The notes below the pieces were generated by a model. It was not told where the DNA came from, made no database searches, and saw only the letters and a list, made by a program, of their open reading frames with translations. Positions 44,273-62,765 of a stretch of DNA of 64,000 nucleotides are shown one piece after another. This DNA comes from Nanobdellota archaeon. GTDB lineage: Archaea; Aenigmatarchaeota; Aenigmatarchaeia; QMZP01. The stretch is from the NCBI GenBank assembly GCA_018816245.1, contig JAHIVW010000003.1, positions 389,150 to 453,149 on the forward strand, given 5' to 3'. The first letter of the stretch is position 1. Each line of letters opens with the position of its first letter. A program made the position numbers and the translations under genes.

Positions 44273-44298
44273 ACTCTCTCCATGGAGTTGGTGGTTTG

Positions 44299-45510: not shown

Positions 45511-45560
45511 GTCCACCAGCCGCGCTCCCGCTCCCTCATGCGAATCTTGTTTGTTCCCAC
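45511..45560 (-). promoter_or_regulatory. Conserved leader element, copy A (plus strand: GTCCACCAG..CGCTCCCGCTCCCTCAtgcGAATCTTGTTTGTTCCCAC)
   Basis: It shares the ordered blocks CTCCCTCA, GAATCTT, GTTTG and CCCAC with 62715..62765. The CTCCCTCA block lies 83 nt upstream of the first ATG here and 89 nt upstream in copy B. Confidence 0.45.
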
Positions 45561-45697
45561 GAGCCGTGCTCAGAGGGGACAAGATTCAGCCTGTGGCAGG
45601 ACACACCAACGAGGCGTGTCAACGGAGGGATGGTGGTGATGATCGTGATTTGTCACTGTCTGAAGATGAAAAATAGATACGAAACTATATAAACATT

Positions 45698-46114
45698 TCA
45701 GATGTCCACGGTCACCTGGGCCTCGTAGCCGTCCTTGGTCTTCGAAATCCCGAACTGGTGCATGGTGATCGCCTTCACGTCGTTCCGGAGCTTTTGAGTC
45801 TTGGGGTCGATCTTCCCGCCCCGGACCGTGGCCGTGACCCCGGTCGGCGTCACCTGAACCGCAAATTCCCTGAAGAGGAGCCCCTCGGTGTCCTTGAGGA
45901 AGATGAGTTCGGAAAGGAAGTCGTAGAGGAGGTGGTCAGGGTCAGTGCCACGGATAGTGACTATTTTCTTCACCGTTGCCGGGATGGTCGAGAGGTCTGC
46001 CATGGAGGCGAACGTGGCCTCGGCAGCAGCCGCAAAGAGCTCGTCGAGCGTCCTGCCCCGGGCGATGAAGGCGATGTCCGCTATCGAGGCGTCCTCGAGG
46101 AACTCGTAGGGCAT
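45698..46114 (-). CDS. Archease (RtcB activator)
   Basis: A 138-aa protein. MPYEFLEDASIADIAF.A.G.TLEELF, LYDFLSELIFL and the C-terminal KAITMHQF pattern are typical of archease. Confidence 0.9.
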   Translation of the reverse strand: MPYEFLEDASIADIAFIARGRTLDELFAAAAEATFASMADLSTIPATVKKIVTIRGTDPDHLLYDFLSELIFLKDTEGLLFREFAVQVTPTGVTATVRGGKIDPKTQKLRNDVKAITMHQFGISKTKDGYEAQVTVDI

Positions 46115-46144
46115 GGCTAGTGTAGATCAGGGGATTTAAAATGA

Positions 46145-46163
46145 TAAATAACAATGTTATATA
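46145..46163. promoter_or_regulatory. Palindromic TATA-containing motif TAAATAACAATGTTATATA, 31-49 nt upstream of archease
   Basis: Seen in the DNA. It has the same architecture as the rtcB and DASS sites. A hairpin follows at 46172..46214. Confidence 0.45.
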
Positions 46164-46165
46164 CC

Positions 46166-46214
46166 AGAAAAAGAGAGCGACCGGCACAACAGTTGCACCG
46201 ATAAATCGCTCTCT
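46166..46214 (-). terminator. Terminator-like hairpin plus T-run at the end of the surface-protein operon
   Basis: On the minus strand, AGAGAGCGA-N25-TCGCTCTCT forms a 9-bp stem and is followed by TTTTTCTGG. Confidence 0.45.
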
Positions 46215-46277
46215 CCAGGAACAGGAGTTTTCCGCAACGACGCACTTACTGGCTCACTTCCTGTTCCTGTTGTTGCG

Positions 46278-46556
46278 TCACTTCTTGGACTTCTTGGAGG
46301 CAGCCTGCAGCAGGGGCTTGACAAACCCTGTTGGTTTGTCTCGATTCAAGAAAGACGAGATTGCCTCTGCAGCCTCCCGTGAACACATACCATCCAGGGT
46401 GTCAGGGGGAAGCCGAAACGGTGATTTCACCACCTTAATCCTCCCCATCCTTTCTTCTGTCATCGCCATAACCCTTCCGTAAAGAGAAGAAAAGGAAACG
46501 AAACCGGTCTTTTGTCTGTCTTTCCTCAAGGACACGAGAGCCTTCAGCCTAATCAT
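46278..46556 (-). CDS. Hypothetical small protein, possibly ribbon-helix-helix-like
   Basis: It is the last ORF of the same-strand surface-protein operon. FRLPPDTLDGM...SREAAEAISSFL loosely resembles an RHH strand-helix pattern. The start is uncertain, with internal Met codons at 46469 and 46463. Confidence 0.4.
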   Translation of the reverse strand: MIRLKALVSLRKDRQKTGFVSFSSLYGRVMAMTEERMGRIKVVKSPFRLPPDTLDGMCSREAAEAISSFLNRDKPTGFVKPLLQAASKKSKK

Positions 46557-46646
46557 GACGTGCTGCTCAATGAGGAATCACATGACTCCTGGATCTGTGT
46601 ACTGAGGTGTTTAGAACTCCAGTGTTCTCGCCAGGAGTATAAAAAG

Positions 46647-47963
46647 CTACTTCCGTTTCGTTGCCCAGAACCCACCGAGGCCAATAACAATCAGCACCAA
46701 CAGGATAATACCGACAATCCCGCCAAGGAGCAGCGGATCCCAGCCTGCTGGCACAGCAGCGCACTGGTTCCCGTCACAACCGTTCGGACAGGTCTCGATT
46801 ACCGTCCAGCTCATGCCGTCCGTGGCACACTGCTGTCGCGATCCTGAAGAACATTGGACCGCTCCTGGTGTGCACACAGTCGTGGCGGCGGCTGCTTGTT
46901 CCCCGACAACTGCGAAGGTTGAGAAACCCGGAGTTTCTGCTTCGAATTGGTAGCCGGTTGCAGTCTCTCCGGTGAAGGTTGTTGCCAGGGTCTGCCATTC
47001 TCCACCGCTGTACCGGAGGAGGGTAATGGCGTCTTTGTCAATATTACTTTCCATGATCCAGAGCTTGGTCACTTCGAAGTCGATGCTCGCATGTTTGAGC
47101 ATGTTTTCAATGTTGGTGAGATCGATTGTGATATACTTGAACACGAGCTGCGACACGGTCGCACCGCTTGGTGTCACCGCCGTTGCAGGCGGCGCTGTTC
47201 CCACGGTTGTGGGCAAGCCTGATTGTGTCGAAACGCTGATCATAACATTGGATGCTGTTCCGGTTGTTTCAATCCTGATGCCTTTCATAAACAGGCCTGC
47301 GGTGTCAAAGACGATCTTTTGTGGAGTGCCAGCAGAGATCTTGTTCACTGTTTTGCTGGCAGTAACCGGCTGTTCCACGGGTGCAGGTTCTTCCTCCTCT
47401 TCTTCGCTTGAGGAGGTGGTTCCGCCGGAGCCTGTGCTGCCGCCTGTTCCGCCACCCGTGCCACCACCAGTGGAGGTGCAGGTTCCAATGGTGCCAGCGA
47501 CATTACAGTCATACCCTGATGTGGTGCAGGCGGTGTTGCAGCAGTAGCCGTCAACGCAATATGTTGAGTTACACGATCCTCCATATGTACAGGCAACGCC
47601 GTTGGCATACGGGTTGACGGTAAGGTTGAGTGACGAAGAATTCCCAATCACGGTCCAGAGTTGTGGTGAGTTATTGGTCGGATAGGCAGGGAGATCGAAT
47701 ACTTTAAATGTAATGTTCGCACCAGCACCAGCAGCCACGTGAATCAGGTACCAACCTAAAGTAAGCTTGCCAAGGGTGGCATTTGAGTGTGCTGTTGAAC
47801 TGCCGTTGATGAAAGAAAAGATCAGGGCTCCGTCTGGACTGGCATTTCCTGTCATTGTAATACCGCCGAACCAGTCAGCAACGTTTGTTGTCTGCGCGGT
47901 AACCTGTGGCATGAGCAAGGCGGCGGCGATAATCATTCCCGCCAATATCCGAACGTGGTTCAT
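46647..47963 (-). CDS. Secreted PGF-pre-PGF domain surface protein with a C-terminal anchor
   Basis: A signal peptide is present, then a Cys-rich region, a GGGTGGGTGGSTGSGGTT linker and an acidic run. TKLWIMESNIDKDAITLLRYSGGEWQTLATT...YQFEAETPGFSTFAVVG is the hallmark end of the PGF-pre-PGF domain. The C-terminus is PAGWDP, then a TM helix, then KRK. Confidence 0.7.
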   Translation of the reverse strand: MNHVRILAGMIIAAALLMPQVTAQTTNVADWFGGITMTGNASPDGALIFSFINGSSTAHSNATLGKLTLGWYLIHVAAGAGANITFKVFDLPAYPTNNSPQLWTVIGNSSSLNLTVNPYANGVACTYGGSCNSTYCVDGYCCNTACTTSGYDCNVAGTIGTCTSTGGGTGGGTGGSTGSGGTTSSSEEEEEEPAPVEQPVTASKTVNKISAGTPQKIVFDTAGLFMKGIRIETTGTASNVMISVSTQSGLPTTVGTAPPATAVTPSGATVSQLVFKYITIDLTNIENMLKHASIDFEVTKLWIMESNIDKDAITLLRYSGGEWQTLATTFTGETATGYQFEAETPGFSTFAVVGEQAAAATTVCTPGAVQCSSGSRQQCATDGMSWTVIETCPNGCDGNQCAAVPAGWDPLLLGGIVGIILLVLIVIGLGGFWATKRK

Positions 47964-47967
47964 AGCA

Positions 47968-50900
47968 TCAGACGATCTGGATCGTATCTGTGACGTTTGC
48001 GTTGATCCAGTAGGGGAAGGCGCTTCCCGAGATTGTGGTGAGGTCGTTCACTGCTCGACCTGGCACAAAGGTTTTCCACGTGTTGCTTCCTCCTTCGGCT
48101 GTCGTATTGTAGTGGTGGACTGCAGTGAAGTTACCCCAGATGCTTGCAAGCACATTCTGCACGGTCTTGTTGCCGCTTACTGAGGAGGCGGAGATCGTGA
48201 AGGATATAACTTCGAAGCGGTTGGAGAAGTTTGCATTCGTATCAAGCACACCACACTGCGGGAACTCGATTGCCCAGTCAGAGTAGTTGGCAAAGCCGAT
48301 GTTCGTGATCCCAACAACACCATTTCCAGCACGATCGGTGATCCCGTAAGCAAACATGTCAAGCAAGCCGTTCTCGCCGGGGTACGGGCTACCACATCCC
48401 GTCTTCACCCCAAGAACTTCGAATTTCTCATGGGCTGCATCGGTCATGTTCAGCACAAGGACTGAGGTATTCGTGCTGTTGAGGATAGCAACAATGACGG
48501 TATTCGGGTTGTTAGCACTTACATTGAATCCATTGAATCCATTTTCAAAGCTGCTTTGGTTATCCGTTATCGTGACGCTATCATAGTTGAATGCTGCCGT
48601 GTTAATGGTTTCATTGAACCGGAAGGTCAGCGTCTTCTCCATGAAGCTGTAGTTCCACGTAACGAGGCCAGGGGCCACGGTGTCAGTCGTCACGTACCAG
48701 CGTGACGTGTTCATAACGATGTTCCCGGCAGAATCGTTCATGTATATGGTGAAGTTGATCGGGATGTTCGGCTGGCTGGTGAAGTTGTAGCTACATGACT
48801 TGTTCCCTGCGTCAGGATCGCTCGTGAAGTTCCCAGAGCCCGTCCCGTTCTTCCAGTCAAACACGCACTGGAATGGATTGGTCTCTGTGTATGACATGTT
48901 CACGAATACATAGGACACGTTTGTGTAGGAGTTGTTCAGCTCCGGGGTGATGAGATTGACATCGGCCGGTGGTGTGGTGTCAGTCAACGCGAAGAATACC
49001 TGGTATGAACTATTACTATTGCCCGCGGAGTCCGAGACAAAGAAGGTGTAATTGACCGGCCCGGAGGAGACGGCTGTGAGGTTCACCGAACAACCAGAGA
49101 AGTTCTGCAGGGTGTACTTTGTGTGCGTCATCGTCACGTTCGTGAGGCCGCTTGAGTTTCCGAACTCAACAACACAACTCGTGCTGTTCATGTTGGTCTC
49201 GTTTATCGTGTAGTTAATGAAAACATAGGTCCCGTTGAGCGTCGAGTCGTTTTGGACGGCTGTGGAGTTCCAGATCGCCGTGGGCACGACCGTGTCACGC
49301 GTCACCGTAAGCATCTTGGATGAGTTGCTGTTGCCAGCGACGTCAGTCACGAAGAGAGTGAGGTTCCAGATTCCGTCACTGAGGCCGGTGAAATTGTAAT
49401 TACATTCCAGACTCTCGTCGCCTCCGACATAATCTGCTGTGTAGTTGGCAACTGAGTCATTGCTGAACTGGAACGTGCAGCTGGTCGCGTTCACGTGGGT
49501 TTCGTTGACCGTGAAGTTGGCAGTGATGTAGTCCTTGATGATGTACGAACCGTTCAGTTCTTCTGTATCGCTGCTATTGTCGATCTTGTTCGGGACAAGG
49601 GTATCGATCGTAAAGTTGATGAATGGTGTCACGTTGCTGTTCTCAGCAGAGTCGTTGAAGAACAGCTTCGCTGACCAGGAGGCATTCGTACCGATGTTGT
49701 TCTGGGCGAGCAATCCAATGCCGCAGCTCATGCCAGCACCAGTTGCTGTCCGGGTCAGAGTTCCCGTGTAGTTCACTGCAGTCCCGTTGTTGAACTCGAT
49801 GAGACACTGGTCAGGATTGGTCTCGTTGATCGTGTAGTTGAAGTTGATGCTTGTGATCGAATTGTTGCTGCTTGTGCCAAGGGTACCGTTGGACTGGTTC
49901 AACTGATTCGGCTCAAGGATATCGACGATGTACGTGATCAGTTGTGACTTGTTCTGATTGCCAGCGACGTCAGTCACCCAGAGGGTGGCATTAATGATGC
50001 CTTCGTTGGCAGTGGTGAAGTTGTAGGTGCAGTTGAGCGAGGAGCCGCCGCCCTCCAGGGCTGCGGTGTAGTTGGCAGCGCTGCCGTTGTGAGTGATCTC
50101 GATGAGACAGCTGGTCGCGTTGATGTGCGACTCGTTTACGGTGAAGTTAAAGGTGACTCCGGGACCGCCGGTGTAGGAAGCATTAATATAGGTGCCGTTA
50201 AAGAGGGAACCGCCACTGATGTCGATGTTGTTCGGAACCAAGGAGTCGACTGTGAAATTCTCGAGGACAGATTGATTCGAGTTCCCTGCTGTATCATTCA
50301 CAAAGACCTTGTGTGACCATGAGGCATTCGTGAGGAGGTTGTTCTGAACCGTAAGGGTGATGCCACAGGACGTGTTCAGGCCAGAGCCGCTTCGGGTTCC
50401 TGAATAGTTCGTTACGGTCCCGTTATTGAACTCGACCACACAAACATCAGGATTCGTCTCATTGTACGTGTAATTGAAGGTCACGGTCGTTGACGTGACG
50501 TTGCTGTCAAGCGTTGGAGTGGGAACATTAGTTACCAACAAACCTGGAGCAGAGATTTCTGCCGTCGTTGTCATCGGGGAAGCCTCTGATCCATTGTTCG
50601 CAAGGAGGCTTCCAAGGTCCGTCATGTTGAAGAAGAATTGCAACACTTCAGTGTCACTGAGAATTGCAGAAAGATCTTTCGTCGTATTACAATCATAGAT
50701 TCGCACTCCTGAAGCTTTTTCATAACATGAAAGTGTTGCAGAAGTGTAGCTGCCCGCGCCTGCTGGTTTATAATAGACTGTCACGTTGGAACTTGGATCA
50801 ATGTTCTCTTCATTGACGGTAACCTCAAAGAGAATATTAGAAAGACCACCGAGAAGTGAACCCGGAACCGGACTGGTCTCATTCAAGGTAGCGTTTGTCG

Positions 50901-53028
50901 AGTCGCGAGTCACTGTGATGAGCTTGGAGCTGTTTTGGTTGCCGGCAACATCAGTCACCCAGAGGGTAGCGTTGAGGATACTATCATTAGCATTAGTGAA
51001 GTTGTACGTACAGTTCAGACTCTCGCCACCGCCCATAAAGGCTGCCGTGTAATTCGCGAGGCTGCCATTATGGGCAATCTGCACGACGCAGCTGGTCGCG
51101 TTGATGTGTGATTCGTTTACTGTGAAGTTGAAAGAAACATAATTGTTTTGCGTGAATGATCCGTTCAGGTTTGCCATTCCGGAGCTATTGTCGATCTGGC
51201 GCGGCTCACTGGTGTCAATTGTAAAGTTCACTAATGGTGTGGAGTTGCTGTTGCCCGCGGAGTCGTTGAAGAATAGCTTCGCTGACCAGCTGATTCCAAT
51301 GGAATCGTTCCCCGGAAGGAGGTCGGCGAGACAGCTCATGCCGACACCAGTCGATGTGTTGGTCAGGATTCCGGTGTAGTTCGTTACAGTCCCGTTGTTG
51401 AACTCGATCAGACAGCTGTGTGGATTCGTCTCGTTTATGGTGTAGTTGAACTTTAGGCTCGTCACTGAGATGTTTGTATTGGCGAAGGTTCCGGCAGACG
51501 GGGTCCCGTTGGATGCATTCAGGTTGTTTGGGACAAGGGTATCGATCGTGTATGTGATAAGCCTCGAGGAGTTGCTGTTGCCAGCGACGTCAGTCACGAA
51601 GAATGTTGTGTTAATGATGCTGTCAGTGGGACTCGCGAAGAGATAGGTACAATTCAAGGTGGCACCGCCACTTTTTGGGACTCCAGTATAGTTCGCCGCA
51701 GTGCCGTTGTGGGTGATCTGGAACGTGCAGCTGGTCGCGTTGATGTGTGATTCGTTCGCAGTGAAGTTGAAGTCGATGCCATCACCAAGCGCAGTTGAGT
51801 TGAAGTACGTGCCATTGCTATAGGCCCCGGTGCTGATGCCGATCTGGAACGCTTCAACGACATCCTGCGTGAAATTATACGTTGGACTAATGTTGCTGTT
51901 CCCAGCAGAGTCGTTCACGAAGAAGAAGTAGGACCAGCTGATTCCAATGGAATCGTTCGGAAGGATCAGAGCAGCAGTACAGTGGGTTCCGGTTCCTGAA
52001 CCGATCCTGGACATTGAGAAATTGGTAAGTGTGCCGTTGTTCAGGGTCACGATGCAACTATTCGGGTTGGTATCATTCCAACTCACATTGAACGTTGGTG
52101 TACCGACCGAGCTATTGGAATCGGGGATCGGCGATCCTGTTGTATTGATAACATTATTCGGGAGGGTTTGATCAATAGTGAACGAATTCGGACTGGTTTC
52201 AGTTCCGTTTGTACCGAGCAGACTCACCGTGTCAGTTGTGTTCCAGAAGTACTGGATCACCTCGCCGTCGTCCGCGAACCACTCCATGTCGTTAAGTGTC
52301 AAATTACAGAGCTTGACTGCAGCCGTTCCTTCGCACAGTGTGGTCACATTGCGCTGGTACGTTCCAGTGCCGCTCTTACGCCAGTAAAAAGTGACGTTGC
52401 CTTTCCCGAAGCCGTTGGCATTGGTACTGATGTTAATATTTTGGTCAGTCAAGATGACCGAAACCAAGGGTGTCAGGTCGTTCGTGAACCCGTTCGTATT
52501 CGGAGAGGTCTCGTTGATCACCGGTGCCTGCGAGTCGTTCTTGTTTACGTTGTGGACCGTGCCATTCGACGGACCAAGTGATGCATTGATATCGAGGAGG
52601 ACGAAGACGGTAACAGCTTCGGTACCGTTTCCTGCTGTAGTACTGACATTGAAGTAGAACGTCGCACTTGTGTTCGTTGTTTCGTTATTGAGAATACCAA
52701 TCGCGGTGAGGTTAGAGAACGTGACGTTTGCGGTATTGTTGGTGACGAACGTGATAGCGGAGGTCATGTTTGATCCGTTTGTTCCTTCAATAAAAGTGAA
52801 ATTTGCAGGAAGCTGGAATGTAATATTAGAAATATTGTGACTACCGTTCGCGTTGACAACTGTGAACACGAGTTGAGCGACTGAGGATCCGGATTCGACG
52901 GTATTCGAAGTTGTCGTGTAGCTGTACGCAAACGCAGGAAGAACGTAGTACGCGGTGAGGCCGATAGAGAGAGCTACCAGCAGGAGAACTACCGAAAATT
53001 TGGAAATACCTTTAAATGGCCCCTTCAT
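47968..53028 (-). CDS. Giant secreted surface (S-layer/adhesin-like) protein with extreme N-glycosylation sequon density and modular Ig-like repeats
   Basis: MKGPFKGISKFSVVLLLVALSIGLTAYYVLPAFA is a good signal peptide from the start at 53028; the ORF track gives 53121. N-x-S/T occurs about every 8-10 residues in the stretches I counted. D(T/S)xxP domain junctions and VTDVAGN / NDSAGNSN motifs recur. The stop is 4 nt from the next gene's start. Confidence 0.8.
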   Translation of the reverse strand: MKGPFKGISKFSVVLLLVALSIGLTAYYVLPAFAYSYTTTSNTVESGSSVAQLVFTVVNANGSHNISNITFQLPANFTFIEGTNGSNMTSAITFVTNNTANVTFSNLTAIGILNNETTNTSATFYFNVSTTAGNGTEAVTVFVLLDINASLGPSNGTVHNVNKNDSQAPVINETSPNTNGFTNDLTPLVSVILTDQNINISTNANGFGKGNVTFYWRKSGTGTYQRNVTTLCEGTAAVKLCNLTLNDMEWFADDGEVIQYFWNTTDTVSLLGTNGTETSPNSFTIDQTLPNNVINTTGSPIPDSNSSVGTPTFNVSWNDTNPNSCIVTLNNGTLTNFSMSRIGSGTGTHCTAALILPNDSIGISWSYFFFVNDSAGNSNISPTYNFTQDVVEAFQIGISTGAYSNGTYFNSTALGDGIDFNFTANESHINATSCTFQITHNGTAANYTGVPKSGGATLNCTYLFASPTDSIINTTFFVTDVAGNSNSSRLITYTIDTLVPNNLNASNGTPSAGTFANTNISVTSLKFNYTINETNPHSCLIEFNNGTVTNYTGILTNTSTGVGMSCLADLLPGNDSIGISWSAKLFFNDSAGNSNSTPLVNFTIDTSEPRQIDNSSGMANLNGSFTQNNYVSFNFTVNESHINATSCVVQIAHNGSLANYTAAFMGGGESLNCTYNFTNANDSILNATLWVTDVAGNQNSSKLITVTRDSTNATLNETSPVPGSLLGGLSNILFEVTVNEENIDPSSNVTVYYKPAGAGSYTSATLSCYEKASGVRIYDCNTTKDLSAILSDTEVLQFFFNMTDLGSLLANNGSEASPMTTTAEISAPGLLVTNVPTPTLDSNVTSTTVTFNYTYNETNPDVCVVEFNNGTVTNYSGTRSGSGLNTSCGITLTVQNNLLTNASWSHKVFVNDTAGNSNQSVLENFTVDSLVPNNIDISGGSLFNGTYINASYTGGPGVTFNFTVNESHINATSCLIEITHNGSAANYTAALEGGGSSLNCTYNFTTANEGIINATLWVTDVAGNQNKSQLITYIVDILEPNQLNQSNGTLGTSSNNSITSINFNYTINETNPDQCLIEFNNGTAVNYTGTLTRTATGAGMSCGIGLLAQNNIGTNASWSAKLFFNDSAENSNVTPFINFTIDTLVPNKIDNSSDTEELNGSYIIKDYITANFTVNETHVNATSCTFQFSNDSVANYTADYVGGDESLECNYNFTGLSDGIWNLTLFVTDVAGNSNSSKMLTVTRDTVVPTAIWNSTAVQNDSTLNGTYVFINYTINETNMNSTSCVVEFGNSSGLTNVTMTHTKYTLQNFSGCSVNLTAVSSGPVNYTFFVSDSAGNSNSSYQVFFALTDTTPPADVNLITPELNNSYTNVSYVFVNMSYTETNPFQCVFDWKNGTGSGNFTSDPDAGNKSCSYNFTSQPNIPINFTIYMNDSAGNIVMNTSRWYVTTDTVAPGLVTWNYSFMEKTLTFRFNETINTAAFNYDSVTITDNQSSFENGFNGFNVSANNPNTVIVAILNSTNTSVLVLNMTDAAHEKFEVLGVKTGCGSPYPGENGLLDMFAYGITDRAGNGVVGITNIGFANYSDWAIEFPQCGVLDTNANFSNRFEVISFTISASSVSGNKTVQNVLASIWGNFTAVHHYNTTAEGGSNTWKTFVPGRAVNDLTTISGSAFPYWINANVTDTIQIV
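49100..52100 (-). repeat. Alternating A/B module repeats inside the giant surface-protein gene
   Basis: Near-identical DNA blocks recur. GCCAGCGACGTCAGTCAC occurs near 49335, 49961 and 51585, with a variant near 50945. GCTGGTCGCGTTGATGTG occurs near 50111, 51091 and 51731. Boundaries are approximate. Confidence 0.6.
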
Positions 53029-53168
53029 TAACCCCACGCTTGGTAGGAGTTGGTTTCCTGAGTTTATAAAGATTACCAATGTCGTCCCCACATGGTGTGG
53101 GAAGGTTGTGTATTTGGTCAAAAACCTATTTCTATATATTATTCTAGTGAAAGGGTATTAGGAACAAT

Positions 53169-53285
53169 GCGTCGGTAGTCTAGCGGTAGGACCCAGATCC
53201 TTGGAAACTCAGAGCGCAGTGCGCAATGACCAAGAAGGGAAAGCCTTCCAAGCCTGTGACCCGGGTTCGATTCCCGGTCGACGCA
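53169..53285 (+). tRNA. tRNA-Gly (anticodon TCC) with a 46-nt intron (53197..53242) between positions 29 and 30 of the anticodon stem
   Basis: Exons splice to GCGTCGG-TA-GTCT-AGCGGTA-GGAC-C-CAG|GC-CTTCCAA-GCCTG-TGAC-CCGGG-TTCGATT-CCCGG-TCGACGC-A. The 71-nt product closely resembles typical archaeal tRNA-Gly(UCC). The stem CAGGC/GCCTG forms only after the intron is removed. Confidence 0.85.
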
Positions 53286-53471
53286 TTCTTTTCATTTCTG
53301 TACAAAACAAAACATATTTTACAAAACGAATCAGATCTTACACACTGTTTTAATGGCTGTTCCTCTTGGTTTTCGTTTCGAAAATTTTTTGTTGTAATTC
53401 TTTGTGTATTATTTTTGCGGTAATGGTATTTTTATGTTCTGTTAGATTGTTGTCATCTCTGTTTTCTGGTT

Positions 53472-53486
53472 TATAACGCTGTTATA
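53472..53486. promoter_or_regulatory. Palindromic motif TATAACGCTGTTATA next to a 12-bp-stem hairpin (53492..53546)
   Basis: Seen in the DNA. It is the fourth copy of the palindrome-plus-hairpin module. Here no gene start lies within 50 nt. Confidence 0.35.
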
Positions 53487-54833: not shown

Positions 54834-54914
54834 GAAGAATCCCTGGTGTTCAGAAATATAATCTTCTCATTGTCCCTTCAACACGGTATTAAGGCAGGAA
54901 ACGAGAAAAACACC

Positions 54915-55232: not shown

Positions 55233-55591
55233 CAACGGTGCTGTGTTTCGGGAATCCGCACTTGCAGGACGACAGTCTCGTTGCATCGCTCATGTCGTCA
55301 TTAGCGCTTCCTGGGATCGAATTCATTTCGTGCACCACGCCTGATGACCTGTTGTTGCACAAGGATTTCATCATTCTTGATGTGGCTAAAGGCATTACAG
55401 AACCTGTGTTCCTTGCTAATCCCGATCAATTACGGACGCGAAACCTTGTTTCCCTGCATGATTTTGATCTGAACTTTTTTTTGAAGTTGTACGCGAAACT
55501 GGGAAACCATTTCAAGGTACTGGCAATCCCGTACGACTATGATAAAGAAAAGGCTGTGACCGCGATTACGGAACTGCTTACACCCAGGTAA
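55229..55591 (+). CDS. NiFe hydrogenase maturation endopeptidase (HycI/HyaD-like)
   Basis: VLCFGNPHLQDDSL matches the GN.x.DD motif. A later HDFD motif is present. The protein is 120 aa and overlaps hypA by 4 nt. Confidence 0.7.
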   Translation: MTTVLCFGNPHLQDDSLVASLMSSLALPGIEFISCTTPDDLLLHKDFIILDVAKGITEPVFLANPDQLRTRNLVSLHDFDLNFFLKLYAKLGNHFKVLAIPYDYDKEKAVTAITELLTPR

Positions 55592-56846
55592 CGTCCAAGA
55601 AATGGGAGCTGCAGGAGAAACACGGATCATACGCGCGGATCAGTTTCTCGATACTGTCAATAATCTCTTGCTGTGATTGGGTGAGGATGCGTGGCAGGAA
55701 GGCGCGGATATCTTCCTGCATTGACCGGAGGTTCTGTGCAGTGGGTGTTATAATATTACAATAGACAATCTTCCTGTCTTTGACAAGGTACTCGTGCCAG
55801 AGTGTTCCGCGAGGAGCTTCAATAGCAGCAATGCCATGGCCACTCTTCAGGTCCGCGCGCCGCGGCGGTTCTGGTTTCAGCTCAAGGGTTTCCAGGATCG
55901 AGATGCAGGTTTCAATGGCATGGAGGAGTTCAACGGCCTGCGCATAGTTGGTGTGGAACGGGTTCTGGCTGGGAAACCAGGTTGCTGCTGCACGTTTTGC
56001 AGCCGGTGCCAGCAAGTCCTTGCTGGTGTTGACGCGCGCGAGGGCGCCGACGCGGTATTCCTTGCCTGCTTTGACCACAAAATTTGCGGTGCTGTCGCGC
56101 TCGTGATATTCCTTGAGATAGTCATGATATTTCCTAATCGGATAATCCTTCTTCCCGGTCCGGATAACGCCGGTTAACATGGCGTATTCCTTTTCATGAT
56201 ACACAGAGAAATTGGCAAGCTCGCGTTCAAACCGCGGGTACCGGAGCGAGGCAAACAAGGAAACGGTTTTCTGTGCGAGCGGTCGGCATGCTTTCAACTG
56301 TGCTGTAAGGTCGTCCAATTGTTCCTGTTTCGGAAGCGTGAGAAACCCCCCTATCTGCGCGGACACCGGATGCAAGTCACGGCCGCCAACCACGGACACC
56401 AACTGGTTGCCGATTTTCATTATCTGCAGTGCAGTCGTGATTTCTTTCTTGTACTTCGGGAGCATCGCAAGCGCTGACTCGTAGCCGAGAAAGTCAGGAA
56501 GCGACAGGAAATACAAATGGGTTGCATGGCTGCGGATGCGCTCGCCCCAGTTTAACAATTTGCGTAATGTCATGGTTTGCTCGGACACCTGCACGTGCAA
56601 CGCGTTTTCCATGGCAAACGCGGACGCAAGCGTGTGCGCACAGCTGCAAATCCCACAGATCCGTGATGTGAGTTCCGGTGCTTCATGGAACTGCCTGCCG
56701 CGAACAATCCCCTCGAAATACCGGCTCCCTTCAGTTGAACCAAGATCGCAGCGCTCCACTTTTCCGTTTCGAATCTTCACCGTGAGCGAGGCGTGCCCCT
56801 CAATCTTTGTCAGATGATCAAGCTTTATTGTTTTTGTCATACACAA
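55578..56846 (-). CDS. hydA: Group 3b NiFe hydrogenase large (alpha) subunit
   Basis: The N-terminal RICGICSCAH and C-terminal DPCFSCSSH Ni-Fe ligand motifs are present. A short C-terminal extension (FLDVTWV) is available for proteolytic maturation. Confidence 0.92.
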   Translation of the reverse strand: MCMTKTIKLDHLTKIEGHASLTVKIRNGKVERCDLGSTEGSRYFEGIVRGRQFHEAPELTSRICGICSCAHTLASAFAMENALHVQVSEQTMTLRKLLNWGERIRSHATHLYFLSLPDFLGYESALAMLPKYKKEITTALQIMKIGNQLVSVVGGRDLHPVSAQIGGFLTLPKQEQLDDLTAQLKACRPLAQKTVSLFASLRYPRFERELANFSVYHEKEYAMLTGVIRTGKKDYPIRKYHDYLKEYHERDSTANFVVKAGKEYRVGALARVNTSKDLLAPAAKRAAATWFPSQNPFHTNYAQAVELLHAIETCISILETLELKPEPPRRADLKSGHGIAAIEAPRGTLWHEYLVKDRKIVYCNIITPTAQNLRSMQEDIRAFLPRILTQSQQEIIDSIEKLIRAYDPCFSCSSHFLDVTWV

Positions 56847-57591
56847 GCTTCCGGACTGCCGGCATCTTGGTGCCAGCGAATGTTACCAACCGGTCCTTGA
56901 TGAATTTTAGACCATGTCCTTGCTTCCGCAGGATAGTGACCATGACCGGGAGGTTCGCGTCGTCAGTTGGCCCGCGGCAGCCCCAGCATTCCAGACCGCC
57001 GTTGATGCAGATCGCGTTACAACCACCGCGCGTGATCGGACCCAGGCACGGCTTCTTCACCTCAAGTAAACAACCGTTGTTGTGCAACTTGCATTCAGTG
57101 CACACAGGATTGTCGTATGATTTTGGGATGTTGCCAAGAACGACGGTCTTGAGGAATGTTCTGATTTCCTGTTTGCTTGGTGGGCAACCGGGAATAACAT
57201 AATCAACCTGCACAAATGAGTCAATCGGACTCGGTTGCACGTCACTGATGTTCTTGTTTTTTTCGTACAACAAGTGCGCATAATTTTTCTGCAACGTAAA
57301 GTGACGGTACGCAGGAACGCAGCCGGTGTGTGCGCACGCGCCCAACGCAATCAGGATCTTCGTGTTCTTCCTGATTTTCAGCAACCGCTCCTTGTCTTCA
57401 TTAGTCGCAACCAACCCTTCCATGAAAACATAATCAAATGTTTCGTCATCATTCACATCTTTAATGAACGGCCACGCACGGATCTCGACGAGTTCCAACA
57501 AGTCGAGCAAGTCGTCTTCCTGGAAGATCACACTCAGCTGACAGCCAGCGCAGCCGGTGATCCCGTAAAAGCCAACTTTGAGTTTAGTCAT
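56818..57591 (-). CDS. hydD: Group 3b NiFe hydrogenase small (delta) subunit
   Basis: GCAGCQ is the proximal-cluster motif. Further Cys clusters are GACAHTGC, PGCPP and CTECK...CLGPITRGGCNAIC. The start at 57591 is preferred to 57615. Confidence 0.85.
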   Translation of the reverse strand: MTKLKVGFYGITGCAGCQLSVIFQEDDLLDLLELVEIRAWPFIKDVNDDETFDYVFMEGLVATNEDKERLLKIRKNTKILIALGACAHTGCVPAYRHFTLQKNYAHLLYEKNKNISDVQPSPIDSFVQVDYVIPGCPPSKQEIRTFLKTVVLGNIPKSYDNPVCTECKLHNNGCLLEVKKPCLGPITRGGCNAICINGGLECWGCRGPTDDANLPVMVTILRKQGHGLKFIKDRLVTFAGTKMPAVRKLVYDKNNKA

Positions 57592-58381
57592 TCTTGAAAT
57601 ACCCAATCTCATCAAACCGGAAGACAGGACCGTCCTTGCACGTGAACTTCCCCCGGATCATGCAGTGGCAGCACATCCCGATACCGCAATACATTAACCG
57701 TTCTGTTGAGAGATACAATTGCTCGTCAGTAAATCCTTTCTTTTTCAGGATGGCAACGGTGTCGTTGATCATGCGCGGCGGTCCGCAGATGAACACGCCG
57801 GTGTTCTTGGTCCGCAGTTTCAGTCCTTCAATCACTTCAGTGATGTGTCCTGAGGTCCAGTCATGGCAGGTAGTTGACTTCTCCTTGCTCAGTGCTGTCT
57901 TGAAGTTGAAGACTTCCTTCCATTGCACTGCTTCTTTCTTGAAGATAATATCATTCACGTTCCGGTAGCCAAAAAACAGGAACACATCATTGTATTTGTG
58001 TCGGTGATGGATAATGTAATCGATCACGCCGCGAAGGGTCGCGACGCCACACCCAGCGCCGATCAAGATGATGTTCTTGCCTTCGTATTCCTTCAATGGG
58101 TAACCTTTTCCGTACGGGCCACGGATATAGAGCGTGTCACCTTTCTTCAGGTTGGCGAGCGCATTTGTGACGGTCCCTGCCTGCCGGATGGTGAATTGCA
58201 CGGTCTTTGTGGTATACGATGCCACTGAAATTGGCGCTTCACCGTACCCCAACACCGAAAGCTGGTAGAACTGTCCCGGGACACACGTGCCGACCTTGGG
58301 AAGCGTCAGACTGACGATGTCCGGTGTTTCTCGGAACCGGTGCAACACCTTCACTTTTCGGGGGACAAGAGTTTGGATCAT
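57584..58381 (-). CDS. hydG: Sulfhydrogenase gamma subunit (FAD/NAD(P)-binding, 2Fe-2S; PyrK-like)
   Basis: The ferredoxin-reductase-type fold motifs RGPYG and GAGCGVATL are present. The C-terminal CGIGMCCHC...C is the 2Fe-2S motif. Confidence 0.85.
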   Translation of the reverse strand: MIQTLVPRKVKVLHRFRETPDIVSLTLPKVGTCVPGQFYQLSVLGYGEAPISVASYTTKTVQFTIRQAGTVTNALANLKKGDTLYIRGPYGKGYPLKEYEGKNIILIGAGCGVATLRGVIDYIIHHRHKYNDVFLFFGYRNVNDIIFKKEAVQWKEVFNFKTALSKEKSTTCHDWTSGHITEVIEGLKLRTKNTGVFICGPPRMINDTVAILKKKGFTDEQLYLSTERLMYCGIGMCCHCMIRGKFTCKDGPVFRFDEIGYFKND

Positions 58382-59331
58382 GTGATCTTGTTTGCAATCG
58401 ACACCCAGTCAATGCGCGTTGGACAGGCAGCAATGCAGCGGCCGCAGCCGGTGCAGAGATCAAATCCGTGCTGTTCTCGGAAGTATTGGATCTGGTGGTA
58501 AATGCGATGTTTGAAGCGATGCTCTCGCTGCTCCCGGAATACATGGTTGCCTGCAATGCGCGTGAACGCCTTGACCTGGCAGGAACTCCAGATGCGACAG
58601 CGCGTTCCGTGTTTGAGGGTGTCGAGCTCGTCATGCAATTCATAACAGTAACAAGTCGGACACATCGCCGTGCATGCAGTACAACTGAGACACTTGTTCA
58701 CACCTGCAGTCCAGGCGTGGTGATCATAGATTGCATTGAAGTCACGCTTTCGCAGCTTTCGGGTTTTGATGTGTTTGTCTGCATCCGTGATCCGCTTGTT
58801 CGCTTTCTTGAAGAACCGTCGGTATTTTTTTATTAGCGCAGCGCCTTTTACACTGGTCACCTCAACGAGGAACTGTGTTTTCTGTTCGTAGAACATGAGA
58901 TCCTGATACTCCTCCAATCCCATGCCGTCGCAGAAGCAGTACTTGTTCGGCGGTGTCGCACAGTGATATCCGATCAGGATCGTGTTGGCGCGCTGCGCCT
59001 TGTACCAAGGATCCTTGTACTGTTTCTGGAAGATGCTGTCCTGGTGTTTGAGGGCTGTCAGGTCGCAGCGGCGAACCCCGAAGAATATCTTTTTCGATGA
59101 TGTGGGTCTGACGGTGATGAGTTTTTGTCCATCAAACCGGAGGATGGTTTCCCGTTTCCTGAAGAAGTGTTCCTTGATCGGGAAGTACGCGTTGTCCGAG
59201 AAGTCAATGGTACCGTTGTACGGTTCAAAGCGGATCGCATCGCGTTTCACTGGCACGTACACGGGCGAGCGCTTCGAGAGCACTGCAAGAAACAGATGCA
59301 GCTGGCTTCGTGGAAGCGTGTACACACCCAT
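58378..59331 (-). CDS. hydB: Sulfhydrogenase beta subunit (4Fe-4S)
   Basis: CLSCTACTAMCPTCYC and CTGCGRCIAACP are ferredoxin-type motifs. It is the first gene of the B-G-D-A order known from Pyrococcus sulfhydrogenase. Confidence 0.85.
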   Translation of the reverse strand: MGVYTLPRSQLHLFLAVLSKRSPVYVPVKRDAIRFEPYNGTIDFSDNAYFPIKEHFFRKRETILRFDGQKLITVRPTSSKKIFFGVRRCDLTALKHQDSIFQKQYKDPWYKAQRANTILIGYHCATPPNKYCFCDGMGLEEYQDLMFYEQKTQFLVEVTSVKGAALIKKYRRFFKKANKRITDADKHIKTRKLRKRDFNAIYDHHAWTAGVNKCLSCTACTAMCPTCYCYELHDELDTLKHGTRCRIWSSCQVKAFTRIAGNHVFREQREHRFKHRIYHQIQYFREQHGFDLCTGCGRCIAACPTRIDWVSIANKIT

Positions 59332-59355
59332 ATATCATTCACTTGGCTTCGGTGC

Positions 59356-60693
59356 TTATATCCAGTACAGCATCGCGAGTGACGCGAGGACGAACAGGCT
59401 GATGGTTGCAAGAATGGCACCGGCCTTCGCCATGTCTTTCACGCGGATGTAGCCGGATGAATAGGCAATCGCCGACGGCGGGGTGCCAACCGGAACAATG
59501 AAGTCAAGTGACACGCCGATGGCAGCGAGCATAACGACAGTCGTCACGTCCAGACCGGTCGCGTGGGCAAGCGGGATCATGAGCGGGATCATCACCGCTG
59601 CTGCGGCTGTGTTGCTGGCAACAACTGTCAAGAGGATGGCAAAGAATCCAATCCCGACAAAGGCGAGGAAGAGCGGCTGGTTCGCGATGACGAGTTCCAG
59701 GAAGGAGGCAATGAATGCATCGAGTCCTGATGCCTGGATGGCTAATCCGAGTGAGAGGCCACCGCCAATCAGGATCAAGGTCGGCCAGTGGATCTTGGTG
59801 AAGTCCTCAGTGTTGAGCAGACCGAACACATACAACAGAATGATCGGAACAAGCGACACCGTGCTGCTGGCCATGCCATGCACGCGCGTGGTCAGCCACA
59901 ATGCAACCGTGACCGCGAAGATGAGGAGCACTTGTTTCTGTGGTTTGCTGAGCCCGCGCTTGAAGCGGATGGTTTTGAGTGTTTTGATTTCAGACCGGAA
60001 TATTCGCGTCACCACCACCCAGGCAACCGGAATAAACACAATCACAAACGGGAGACCGTACCACATCCAGTCAAGGAAGTCAAACGCAATCCCTGCTTCG
60101 TTCAGGAATTTCGCAGCAATGACATTCGGGGTGCTGCCGATCAAGGTCCCGATGCCGCCGATGGTTGCGGCAAACGCAATACCAAGTACCAACGCCTTGC
60201 CGTAATTAGATTTCAACGGCTTGATCTTGTTTTTCGTTAACACAACCAACCCGATTGGTAACAGGATTGCGGTTGCTGCAGTGTTGCTCATCCACATGGA
60301 AAGGAACGCGGCGATCACCATCATAGCGAACAGGAAGGTGTTCGGAGCGTGCCCGATCTTATCAAGGAAGGTGTACGCAATGTATTCGTCGAGTTTGTGC
60401 TTTTGGAGCGCTCGTGCGAGGACGAAACCGCCGAGCAACAGGACAATGACCGGATCGAAGAACGGGGTGAAGGTTTCCTCGGGCGTCATGCCTGCAATCG
60501 TGATCAAGAGGAACGCGATGACAATGGCTGTTGCATGGAGCGGCAGGGCCTCGGTGAACCAGAGGAACATGGCAACGATCATGATTGCCAGGACGAGTTG
60601 CGCCTGCGGTTGGAGGGGAAGCGGCGCGAGCGCAATGATGATCCCGACGATCGCGGAGAGGAGAATGAAGAGGTGCTGGCGGGTCATTTGCAA
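59356..60693 (-). CDS. DASS/SLC13-family anion:sodium symporter
   Basis: A 445-aa polytopic protein. Duplicated SNTA(A/T)A hairpin motifs are present (MSNTAATAILLPI and ASNTAAAAVMIPL). Confidence 0.85.
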   Translation of the reverse strand: MQMTRQHLFILLSAIVGIIIALAPLPLQPQAQLVLAIMIVAMFLWFTEALPLHATAIVIAFLLITIAGMTPEETFTPFFDPVIVLLLGGFVLARALQKHKLDEYIAYTFLDKIGHAPNTFLFAMMVIAAFLSMWMSNTAATAILLPIGLVVLTKNKIKPLKSNYGKALVLGIAFAATIGGIGTLIGSTPNVIAAKFLNEAGIAFDFLDWMWYGLPFVIVFIPVAWVVVTRIFRSEIKTLKTIRFKRGLSKPQKQVLLIFAVTVALWLTTRVHGMASSTVSLVPIILLYVFGLLNTEDFTKIHWPTLILIGGGLSLGLAIQASGLDAFIASFLELVIANQPLFLAFVGIGFFAILLTVVASNTAAAAVMIPLMIPLAHATGLDVTTVVMLAAIGVSLDFIVPVGTPPSAIAYSSGYIRVKDMAKAGAILATISLFVLASLAMLYWI

Positions 60694-60720
60694 TACATTT
60701 GGTTCGGGGGGAGCATAAAG

Positions 60721-60747
60721 GTCATGTATAACAGTGTTATATATGAC
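60721..60747. promoter_or_regulatory. 27-bp near-perfect palindrome GTCATGTATAACAGTGTTATATATGAC, 28-54 nt upstream of the DASS transporter
   Basis: Seen in the DNA. The core is identical to the rtcB site. A long hairpin follows at 60752..60792 (ACGAACGG...CCGTTCGT). Confidence 0.5.
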
Positions 60748-60809
60748 AAAGACGAACGGCAGGAGTATGTTTGTCGGGTTCCTACCGTTCGTGGGTTCAG
60801 GGGAGATGC

Positions 60810-61079
60810 TTATACCTCGAGTGCAGTCCAGCCGTCGCGGGGTCGGGGAACTCCGCCGACAACGGAACCGCTACACTTGAAGATATGTGATCGCAGGCCG
60901 CTTCCGAGGCATGCTTCGCAGATCTTCTTCCCAGCGACCTTTTTCCCATTACAGATCGGACACTTTTCTCCTTCTTTGATATGGTGTCCGACCACCACGT
61001 CCTTCTTCACGGAAATCCCTCCCGTGCCAAAACCTGCATCTCCTAAAAATGTTCCCGCCGATGTGGAGATGCAAAACAT
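60810..61079 (-). CDS. Hypothetical small zinc-finger protein
   Basis: CPICNGKK....CEACLGSG resembles the DnaJ-type CxxCxGxG pair. The start is uncertain. Confidence 0.4.
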   Translation of the reverse strand: MFCISTSAGTFLGDAGFGTGGISVKKDVVVGHHIKEGEKCPICNGKKVAGKKICEACLGSGLRSHIFKCSGSVVGGVPRPRDGWTALEV

Positions 61080-61099
61080 CGGGACGGTTTACGATAATA

Positions 61100-61483
61100 C
61101 TAGCACCTTTTCGGACGTCGAGCTCCCGTGCACATAGAAAGGGTTCGAGTACCAGCGCACATAGAACTCTCGCCCTCCGGCGGCAGTTTTACACCACCGC
61201 CGATGCTAGGGAAGTGTGCCGTAACACGGCCCATCGGAACCGGTTCCCGCTCGGGCTCGATGATCAGCAGTTCCTCGAAGGCATGGAGAACCTCCGGAAA
61301 CAGGATAGGAGATACGCCACCACACTCCTCCAAGAGAAGCTTGAGAATGAGACGCGCGACGTTCTCGAGTCCTCTTGCTCCAGCTTCTCTGAAGATAGTG
61401 TCAGTGACTTCTTCCACCTTTTCGGGTGGTGTATCGTTGTCCGCCAAGACATATACGAGGGCGTGAATCTGTTCTCGTTGCAT
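61100..61483 (-). CDS. Hypothetical protein (127 aa)
   Basis: GGGGAGGGG lies about 10 nt upstream of the ATG at 61483; the ORF track gives 61540. No motif was recognised. Confidence 0.45.
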   Translation of the reverse strand: MQREQIHALVYVLADNDTPPEKVEEVTDTIFREAGARGLENVARLILKLLLEECGGVSPILFPEVLHAFEELLIIEPEREPVPMGRVTAHFPSIGGGVKLPPEGESSMCAGTRTLSMCTGARRPKRC

Positions 61484-61610
61484 ACGACTTTCCCCTCCCC
61501 AGTTTGTGAACCTTGAGGCAGTGGGGAGTTTCTGCCACAACTATACCGAAAAAACCTGGCGGCCCTCCCAGAAAGAGCCGCCAGGTTCAAACTAACGAAC
61601 ACCTTGTCTG

Positions 61611-61808
61611 TCAGCGTTCTCCAAGATCCCTGCTTGGTTGAGCAACTCGGAGTTCCTCAAGAAATCTTTTCACCGCCTCGCGGCGCCTCGGAAGGGCGCT
61701 CTGCCGAAGCAGCACCAATCGCATGGCCCACGGATCGGAGTTGAATTCTCTAACCGGATCCCCGAAGTTCTCGAGAAGTCTGTTCTCGGGCCCCTGGTGC
61801 ATTTTCAC
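61611..61808 (-). CDS. Hypothetical small protein (65 aa)
   Basis: It overlaps the upstream membrane-protein gene by 4 nt. Confidence 0.4.
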   Translation of the reverse strand: MKMHQGPENRLLENFGDPVREFNSDPWAMRLVLLRQSALPRRREAVKRFLEELRVAQPSRDLGER

Positions 61809-62203
61809 GTCATGTTCTCCTTTCTCAGGGGGTCTGTCTTGTGACCAGATCCGATTGTCCAGCCATGGCGAATTAGTTGCAGGACAGGGATCCCTGCAAC
61901 GATGATCATGAAGAGCAGCACCAGAAACTGACCTCCCGTCGTTTCTAGGATCTTCGAAGCTTGTGCCAGGAATGCGAAGGCCCCGAAGATCAAGCTGCTT
62001 CCCAAGAGTCTCTGCTGCTTCAGGTAGGTGAGCGCACCCACGAGCAGCAGAACTACAAACCCGAGTGCAGGTCCGATTCTCATCATCACCTGCGACGGCG
62101 ATCCATCACCATAATCCCCAAAAGGAAAGGTGAAGAGGTAGATGCCGAAGTAGATCACTGTACAGGCAGCGATCAAGATCTGGAGCGTCTTCTGATCTCG
62201 CAT
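61805..62203 (-). CDS. Hypothetical 4-TM membrane protein (132 aa)
   Basis: Four hydrophobic helices are predicted. Its start overlaps the upstream stop by 1 nt (TGATG). Confidence 0.55.
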   Translation of the reverse strand: MRDQKTLQILIAACTVIYFGIYLFTFPFGDYGDGSPSQVMMRIGPALGFVVLLLVGALTYLKQQRLLGSSLIFGAFAFLAQASKILETTGGQFLVLLFMIIVAGIPVLQLIRHGWTIGSGHKTDPLRKENMT

Positions 62204-62640
62204 CAGAATGTGTCCCTGAGAATGGAGGGAAGAACCATGATCTTGGTTCTCAGGGTGTGTGCCGCAAGGGGAATCATCCCGAGAACTTCTTCAGGATCCG
62301 TAGAGAGTTCGGCGAAACGCCGTATCCCCTCCTCACGGCTTACCCCCTCAAGTTCGAGATGTGTGTAGGCATCCGCCAACACCCACTTCATCATCCCGAA
62401 CTGCACACCGCGGTCCCCCTCATTTGGATCGGGGTCAACGAGATCGAACGTCTCGGGACCCAAGAATGTGAACACCGGCGCGAGCGCACCAGCGATCCAG
62501 TTCTTGACATTCGTTTCCTCACCGTGTTCGAAAACGGGGATTTCGTCCCAAACAACGGACAGGAACGCCAGAACTGTGGCGAACAGCTCTGGTCGTGTTG
62601 TCAGGGGTTCCAGGCTTTCCCTGGAGATTTGAACATTCAT
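62203..62640 (-). CDS. Hypothetical protein (146 aa), possible paralog of 44832..45284
   Basis: GGGAGGG lies 3-5 nt upstream of the ATG at 62640; the ORF track gives 62688. It is the first gene of the cluster. Confidence 0.55.
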   Translation of the reverse strand: MNVQISRESLEPLTTRPELFATVLAFLSVVWDEIPVFEHGEETNVKNWIAGALAPVFTFLGPETFDLVDPDPNEGDRGVQFGMMKWVLADAYTHLELEGVSREEGIRRFAELSTDPEEVLGMIPLAAHTLRTKIMVLPSILRDTF

Positions 62641-62714
62641 GTACCCTCCCACATTGCCATTGAGCCAACGGCTCGGAAAAAGAAACACCAGCAGGCAGAC
62701 GAGGAAGGGCGGCT

Positions 62715-62765
62715 GTCTCCAGTCGCTTCTCCCTCAGAATCTTCGGTTTGGTTTTGCCTGCCCAC
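62715..62765 (-). promoter_or_regulatory. Conserved leader element, copy B (plus strand: GTCTCCAGTCGCTTCTCCCTCAGAATCTTCGGTTTGGTTTTGCCTGCCCAC)
   Basis: It has the same ordered blocks as 45511..45560. It lies 89 nt upstream of the first ATG of the cluster. Confidence 0.45.

Follow-up and report, generated by a model that had tools for sequence, protein, structure and literature searches.

Do two anonymous gene clusters of a Nanobdellota archaeon share a regulatory element in their leaders? The DNA analyzed here, hereafter the window, is a stretch of 64,000 nucleotides corresponding to C4:389150-453149, where C4 is one of the six contigs of an 886-kb genome with an estimated completeness of 88%. 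The public sequencing runs that contain the sequence of this genome are groundwater metagenomes. Its archease and rtcB genes, its TATA-type promoters, a 117-nt tRNA match suggestive of an intron and the 3' end of its 16S rRNA (GGAUCACCUCCU) mark the organism as a small archaeon. According to the original prediction, clusters A and B, both on the minus strand, are preceded by a conserved element of about 50 nt at closely similar distances from the first ATG. We call its two occurrences site A (45560-45511, GTGGGAACAAACAAGATTCGCATGAGGGAGCGGGAGCGCGGCTGGTGGAC) and site B (62765-62715, GTGGGCAGGCAAAACCAAACCGAAGATTCTGAGGGAGAAGCGACTGGAGAC); positions are those of the window, read on the minus strand, unless a contig is named. 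The blocks are present at both sites as described. The distances are exact, the TGAGGGAG block ending 83 nt before the ATG at 45448 in A and 89 nt before that at 62640 in B, and the core AAGATTC-N0-4-TGAGGGAG occurs in the genome at just these two places. Our analysis leads to a different shared element. Leader A belongs to an undescribed family of modules, each a promoter plus a leader in about 175-315 nt, that is specific to this genome. It is close to certain that this family exists, that it includes site A and that it excludes site B.

The family has eight copies in this genome, six clear and two degenerate. Membership was judged by a significant match to a profile hidden Markov model (HMM) or a covariance model (CM), embracing a UUCG junction, a GGGAGCGGGAGCG box and a GUCUUU hairpin 45-46 nt past the box. 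The clear copies are leader A (C4:434843-434595, that is window 45694-45446, minus strand), C4:367947-368227 (C4_368), C4:380224-380033, C4:461770-461602, C4:506938-506727 (before an acyl carrier protein gene, and termed the ACP copy) and C6:97961-97785. The degenerate copies lie in the leader of cluster B (window 63260-63037, termed Bup) and at C6:94155-94028. An HMM built from leader A and its three partners recovered two further copies (E = 2.7e-7 and 5.6e-4) together with a weak match at the start of the long cluster B leader (window 63260-63122). A seven-sequence HMM added the eighth copy, at C6:94155-94028, with E = 0.054, and its sequence contains all the blocks. The covariance model R1 was built on the central 78 positions of the family. 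It gives 58-81 bits for the six clear copies, and the next-best match in the genome has 12.5 bits.

Leader A is detected with E = 1.7e-53 by the first nhmmer model and 1.8e-47 by a later one, and scores 80.8 bits with R1 (E = 7.6e-22). A 49-nt HMM made without A still detects site A (E = 0.047). Site B is invisible to every family model, going undetected by R1 at E ≤ 10, by three short HMMs at E ≤ 100 and by full-length HMMs at E ≤ 20. Six of the eight copies lie within 140 kb of a single contig, and the copies are dispersed at 3.7-55 kb from one another. Each has a TATA box before it and a Shine-Dalgarno sequence with its start codon after it, and all are oriented in sense.

The anatomy of the module can be followed along leader A (45694-45446), which was delimited by nhmmer and R1; it begins at a TATA box and ends with the ATG that opens the first ORF (open reading frame) of cluster A. 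The TATA box TTTATATA (45693-45686) starts 5 nt past the stop codon of the archease gene (45700-45698) and falls within the family alignment. The other copies are headed by TTTAAATA (two copies), CTATAAATAG and CTTTATAAAG, with weaker boxes in three. In every copy this TATA box is 96-181 nt upstream of the G-rich box and serves no other gene. A C-rich strand, AUCACC..CGUUCC(C), begins about 1-22 nt past the expected transcription start in six of the eight copies, the start being a predicted one. In leader A this strand is ATCACCACCATCCCTCC (45640-45624), and minimum free energy (MFE) folds pair it with 45535-45511 to form a helix that we term P1. The interior of P1 is variable, with local hairpins, and is followed by an A-rich stretch and UUCG-N3-5. 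In A this UUCG-N5 junction is TTCGCATGA (45544-45536), conserved in six of the eight copies and placed directly 5' of the box.

The G-rich box GGGAGCGGGAGCG with the distal CGGCTGGTGGAC (45535-45511) makes up the 3' strand of P1, as judged by identity between copies and by duplex energies. The box continues into ..GGUGG; three copies agree in all of its first 13 nt, and five have GGAGCGGGAGC. An A/U-rich linker (GAAATTTCTTGTCTC, 45510-45496 in A) begins 25-26 nt past the start of the box in four copies. It is followed by a hairpin, P2, formed in A by AAGACTGTC-TTT-GGCGATCTT (45495-45475). The GUCUUU of P2 is located 45 or 46 nt past the box start in seven of the eight copies, at 46 nt in A. 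In most copies the Shine-Dalgarno sequence and start codon come within 10-25 nt after P2. In A these are GGGAGG (45461-45456) and the ATG (45448-45446) of a 58-amino acid (aa) ORF resembling a winged helix-turn-helix (wHTH) protein. Conservation is thus block-wise, with exact spacing retained and the sequence between the blocks replaced.

Site A takes in the last part of the P1 interior (GTGGGAACAAAC) and, after it, the UUCG junction and the G-rich box together with its distal 3' strand, and therefore its TGAGGGAG and AAGATTC blocks seemed conserved. The idea of a shared cis-acting leader ahead of anonymous clusters thus stands in that a leader family exists; the shared element is not the 50-nt motif, which in A overlaps two parts of the eight-copy module. 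Site A lacks a TATA box and is situated 125-150 nt downstream of the canonical TTTATATA, so it is probably not a core promoter, in agreement with the original prediction.

We examined the potential folding of the leaders. In every MFE fold the box pairs with an upstream C-rich strand. Compared with dinucleotide shuffles the P1 domains fold more stably, with z = -1.78, -4.67, -1.52, -3.53, -3.18 and -1.99, and Bup closes in the manner of the family with z = -2.68. When the duplex between box and upstream strand is compared with that formed by random genomic partners, it stands out clearly in two copies (p = 0.003 and 0.01) and moderately in two others (p = 0.07 and 0.11); taking all values together (p = 0.003-0.32) by Fisher's method the combined p is about 4e-4. 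The distal pairs of P1 vary between copies yet stay complementary, as in CCACCA/UGGUGG, CCACCC/GGGUGG and UCCAUCA/UGAUGGA, and in the ACP copy, where the box diverges (GGGAGCAGCAGGACGG), its partner strand diverges to match. The sense duplex is more stable than its antisense equivalent in six copies of six because 20 of the 126 pairs are G-U. Such strand-specific pairing argues for RNA rather than an inverted repeat in DNA. In P2, 80% of cells are paired, compared with 23-52% for slid controls.

The box regions, including that at 45535-45511, contain four or five runs of G (GGG-AGC-GGG-AGCGC-GG-CU-GG-U-GG) in most copies. It is conceivable from these letters that a candidate two-tetrad G-quadruplex might compete with P1.

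Three other accounts of the conserved region were considered and set aside. A small protein or leader peptide does not fit, as three-frame translation of six copies gave no common start codon or peptide. The conserved part is taken to be non-coding because no frame start is shared and the spacing varies by 1 nt, not 3. Uniform sequestration of the Shine-Dalgarno sequence is not supported, because its accessibility ranges so widely (below) and the site is not consistently paired in the leader folds. A riboswitch-type leader is not indicated, since the interior of P1 is unconserved between copies and no copies were found in 150 relatives or in pattern scans of large collections.

We favor an RNA-level mechanism, with a probability of about 0.5, in which a transcribed, structured 5' leader is common to a set of accessory genes. 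On this model transcription from the module's own TATA box, acting as a strong promoter, would yield a structured 5' untranslated leader. That leader would have a long helix close to its 5' end and a hairpin, and would leave the ribosome-binding site exposed; this helix and P2 would set the stability of the mRNA or its translation. One strand of P1 is near-invariant and its partner merely complementary, which suggests that the G-rich strand is what a common factor reads. That trans-acting factor would recognize the strand sequence-specifically, with P1 masking or presenting it, so that the accessory genes could come under common post-transcriptional control at the level of stability or translation. 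The G-rich strand is itself Shine-Dalgarno-like, having two GGGAG sequences, and is complementary to the 3' end of the 16S rRNA of this genome, GGAUCACCUCCU.

Several observations weigh against such a mechanism. The P1 duplex is no better than controls in leader A and in C4_368 (p = 0.29 and 0.32). The register of P1 differs among copies, and MAFFT could not align the 5' strands in register; P1 rests on folds of the individual copies because there is no single structural alignment of these strands. Covariation in P2 is weak, with 66 of 500 shuffles reaching the observed score, and is thin because there are just eight copies, all in one genome. The predicted probability that the Shine-Dalgarno sequence is unpaired runs from 0.06 to 0.83; set against 150 control genes, these values fall anywhere from the 9th to the 98th percentile. 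The sole metatranscriptome containing the organism, a small one, covers the archease gene and none of the leaders, and the transcription starts are predicted ones; for the ACP copy the search turned up no RNA run. Lastly, a near-invariant strand with rigid spacing would also suit a protein site at the level of DNA.

A DNA-level promoter or operator, making the family a transcriptional regulon, is the alternative that deserves most attention, although we regard it as rather unlikely. The GGGAGC-GGGAGC direct repeat would then be the site of a factor, the linker 25-33 nt past the box start a weak B recognition element (BRE) and TATA box, and GTCTTT with the P2 palindrome, at the start site, an initiator or repressor site. 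The conservation of the box, identical over 13 nt in three copies and over GGAGCGGGAGC in five, against a variable partner strand is what would be expected of such a site, as is the rigid spacing of 45-46 bp from box to GTCTTT. The A/T-rich stretch (GAAATTT, GAATTTT, GAAATT, GATTTTC or GGTTTTTT) is at a fitting distance for an archaeal promoter from P2 and the start codon, and as a TATA box it would leave a leader of 10-33 nt with a Shine-Dalgarno sequence. Moreover wHTH genes adjoin two of the family copies. The neighboring wHTH proteins are the 58-aa ORF (45448-45272) and a protein of 231 aa (63985-63290). Yet a far better TATA box is found upstream of the G-rich box in every copy, and C4_368 lacks the putative proximal one. 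The complementarity of box and upstream strand is strand-specific, through its G-U pairs. The P2 half-sites of A and C4_368 make poor DNA palindromes, yet are paired as RNA by virtue of G-U pairs.

The ORFs that follow the eight leaders are all small, and none is related to another; no paralogy was found among them or among the proteins of clusters A and B. In a Pfam search they had no match except for one, an 83-aa acyl carrier protein at C4:506729-506478 (PP-binding, E = 1.2e-11). This is an unusual gene for a small archaeon, and the sole ORF there that belongs to a known family. The best-scoring ORF of each cluster (A2 and B1) has no relative among 5.8 billion protein clusters, and there are consequently no syntenic leaders to compare. 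In most relatives of the same family, archease and rtcB are separated by 44-300 nt on one strand. Here the distance is 2.1 kb (window 42113-46114), occupied by a block of four orphan ORFs with their own leader, and rtcB has its own palindromic promoter. Judged by this arrangement, cluster A is a lineage-specific insertion. Two relatives also have a wider gap between archease and rtcB; it contains other ORFs and no copy of the leader.

To our knowledge gene regulation in DPANN archaea is almost unknown, and nothing ties their many orphan genes to functions. A leader placed before seven or more transcription units that are otherwise unrelated points to a candidate regulon, and it provides a concrete RNA or DNA target with which to find the regulator. 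It means too that accessory genes, among them those inserted into the conserved archease-rtcB pair, share a signal for their expression. The reach of the finding is limited because the family is known from one metagenome-assembled genome (MAG).

A more elaborate proposal is that the module is a portable expression adaptor attached to newly acquired orphan genes. It would consist of the TATA box, a masking 5' helix, the hairpin and the Shine-Dalgarno sequence, with one factor reading the G-rich strand. The regulon would be lineage-specific, the archease-rtcB insert a captured cassette and site B an eroded member. We think this unlikely as a whole.

A motif shared by A and B, as originally predicted, seems improbable. 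By this account the 50-nt GTGGG..AACAAAC..AAGATTC..TGAGGGAG would be an operator or RNA motif of these two clusters alone, perhaps because B is a strongly diverged member of the leader family. The core is indeed confined to these two places, in the same orientation and at closely similar distances from the first ATG. A gap-tolerant alignment is collinear over about 190 nt up to the Shine-Dalgarno sequence (p = 0.02-0.05). In leader B the features come in the same order as in the family, with CACCAG..A-rich..UUC-N3-GGGAG..AGCG..CUGGUG followed by a U-rich stretch, then a hairpin and the Shine-Dalgarno sequence, and the GGGAG of site B pairs with an upstream strand better than do controls (p = 0.003-0.02).

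The alignment statistics are less favorable. The best local alignment of the two sites, CAAAC--AAGATTCGCATGAGGGAG against CAAACCGAAGATTC---TGAGGGAG, has 20 identical bases and two gaps, with a score of 24. For shuffled sequences the score is 17.2 +/- 2.2, and 24 is attained by 18 out of 1000. With random genomic windows the A/B score is equaled or exceeded in 2-4% of cases by three of the scoring schemes and in 21-23% by the fourth; with 351 real upstream regions led by a Shine-Dalgarno sequence the figure is 1.7-4.8%. The similarity is therefore weak, and little better than controls. When the whole genome was scanned by the Smith-Waterman method with either 61-nt site as query, the other site was outside the ten best matches. 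The top matches of site A are three other loci scoring 48, 45 and 33, where the 99.9th percentile of windows is 25, and each site has better partners elsewhere. A search of 60 relatives at the family and order level for the core pattern gave two matches, both within apparent coding sequence, so that no copies of the element were found in related genomes; moreover neither cluster has homologues that would allow a test of conservation. Folding of the two 50-nt sites gave no common structure, the GAGGGAG of A pairing upstream and that of B downstream. Family HMMs and the CM miss B at very permissive thresholds, and the family-like copy of cluster B is positioned further upstream in its leader. 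The likeness of site B to A is limited to CAAAC..AAGATTC..TGAGGGAG, and the resemblance is at most a faint echo. The idea of a shared regulatory leader is thus partly supported, being right in spirit for A and misplaced for B.

Two further explanations were also rejected. Direct repeats serving as att sites of a 17-kb element are not indicated, as the match is imperfect with indels, the composition is flat and the interval contains core genes (hydrogenase, tRNA and archease). Plus-strand ORFs spanning the sites have low coding scores, and their frame is not maintained.

The leader of cluster B is 590 nt long and has the degenerate copy Bup (63260-63037, by nhmmer and fold) at its start, some 410 nt upstream of site B. 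Bup comes right after a TATA palindrome (63263-63254), and comprises a 5' strand ATCACCTCC (63226-63218), TTCG (63156-63153), a box-like GCCAGCGGGAGCGC (63147-63134) and a distal strand GTGGGGTGA (63129-63121). With nhmmer a model that had not seen Bup matched it over 140 nt with a genome-wide E of 0.17, and short models gave E = 2.4-24. It has no R1 match, and the first GGGAG and the GUCUUU are missing. It is possible that clusters A and B are co-regulated through this different element, along with at least five other transcription units.

Nearer to the gene, leader B has a structure of its own. A long hairpin (62845-62782, with arms 62845-62826 and 62801-62782; z = -2.36) is directly upstream of site B. 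The site is enclosed (62771-62685) by a 16-bp helix, GCACCAGTGGGCAGGC/GTCTGCCTGCTGGTGT, in a 150-nt fold with z = -2.27. This is followed by a hairpin GAGCC-GTT-GGCTC (62674-62662), the Shine-Dalgarno sequence GGGAGGG (62650-62644) and the ATG (62640-62638) of the first ORF of cluster B. Site B lies in a separately structured stretch of the leader and is probably not homologous to the family; we strongly doubt that it is either a genuine family member that has eroded or a site specific to the two clusters. Within 62845-62685 there is also a 9-nt pair, GGGCGGCTG/CAGCCGCCC, that crosses the 16-bp helix (62771-62756 with 62700-62685). The two are mutually exclusive because they cross, and in the predicted folds such competing helices may possibly represent the layout of an RNA switch.

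Finally, that the copies are decaying relics of old segmental duplications of a promoter region, or of an element like a miniature inverted-repeat transposable element (MITE), with no present shared function, is most improbable: they are found in one genome only and are concentrated on one contig, their interiors have diverged nearly to randomness, the P1 strands resemble terminal inverted repeats and cluster A is a lineage-specific insertion, but the conservation is block-wise with exact spacing held while intervening sequence is replaced, each copy is in sense from TATA box to Shine-Dalgarno sequence and start codon, the pairing is strand-specific through G-U, and no interior conservation was seen, unlike young MITE families, target-site duplications not having been looked for.

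How does the family compare with known systems? Structured cis-regulatory leaders such as riboswitches, ribosomal protein leaders and T-boxes (the Rfam Cis-reg class) have a similar folded domain between promoter and Shine-Dalgarno sequence, and likewise recur in sense, their blocks and helices conserved, before several transcription units of a genome. They differ in that the variable P1 interior leaves no conserved ligand-binding core in the present family, which is conserved on one strand of a helix, is found in one genome and has no Rfam match. In bacteria mRNA can be stabilized by 5'-terminal stem-loops, as in the ompA leader, or by Shine-Dalgarno-like sequences, as with the STAB-SD of the Bacillus thuringiensis cryIIIA leader. 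In most copies of the family a long helix likewise begins only a few nucleotides from the predicted 5' end, and a Shine-Dalgarno-like G-rich stretch is found far upstream of the real Shine-Dalgarno sequence. However, the host here is an archaeon, a stabilizing role is putative and the predicted fold has the Shine-Dalgarno-like strand engaged in pairing.

Archaeal regulons with defined DNA motifs include the glycolytic motif of Thermococcales, bound by regulators of the TrmB family, and the sites of Ptr2. As with these activator or operator motifs, a short near-invariant sequence precedes several operons at fixed spacing from promoter-like features; in contrast, the sequence here is well downstream of the best TATA box, strand-specific and complementary through G-U pairs to an upstream strand. 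As a multi-copy, imperfect, intergenic palindrome of a single genome the family is also reminiscent of repetitive extragenic palindromes and bacterial interspersed mosaic elements (REP/BIME), enterobacterial repetitive intergenic consensus (ERIC) sequences and archaeal MITEs. It differs from them in having a fixed place and orientation with respect to TATA box, Shine-Dalgarno sequence and start codon, and an unconserved interior. No transposase-related ends were seen in the flanks read, target-site duplications not having been looked for. A MITE or other mobile intergenic repeat was rejected on the grounds that the interiors are unalignable and every copy is in sense between TATA box and start codon. 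Archaeal MAGs are reported to carry integrons and attC-like sites, and the imperfect inverted repeats with a variable interior, beside promoterless-looking orphan ORFs, are similar. The copies are nevertheless 5' of the genes, have a TATA box of their own, are dispersed rather than arrayed, and have no RYYYAAC/GTTRRRY core sites.

The family was also sought elsewhere. In 150 relatives the box pattern is no commoner than a reversed control, and the best CM score is 23 bits; the eight best matches were inspected and are unconvincing. The large collections (GTDB genomes, metagenomes and viral contigs) were searched with fixed patterns, giving scattered single matches at chance expectation; the metagenome and viral loci had at most 18 bits when re-scored with the CM. 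Rfam 15 applied to the window at the gathering threshold yields two tRNAs and nothing else, and in permissive mode over six leader loci two chance-level matches to eukaryotic families (E about 3). A literature search on leaders or transcription starts in DPANN archaea found nothing relevant. In a second groundwater run (X2) the assembled contigs break on both sides of leader A (window 45656-45423), which may result from low coverage or from the repeat effect of a multi-copy leader.

Some further features of the window and its relatives were observed. The intergenic palindrome TATAAC-N3-GTTATA has 26 exact copies in the genome, and is found in the window at 43598-43612, 46144-46161, 53472-53486 and 60727-60741. 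Copies are directly upstream of rtcB, archease and a gene for a DASS-type permease, and those of rtcB and the permease have 18 identical bases in common (ATATATAACACTGTTATA). Clusters A and B are bounded at their 3' ends by this palindrome. It seems to be a palindrome of general use, either a promoter element or a protein-binding site, and to be distinct from the leader family. In several relatives (G007, G019, G030, G010 (L266) and G028 (L265)) rtcB matches in two pieces or in a frame of 868-1002 aa, and ORFs beginning ..AAIHGYLC(S/A)DGYVI.. adjoin it. This suggests that rtcB in these genomes contains an intein with a putative LAGLIDADG-type endonuclease; the rtcB of the window (483 aa) has no intein. 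Between the two clusters, at 53169-53285, there is a tRNA match of 117 nt with 41 bits, a length that suggests an intron-containing tRNA.

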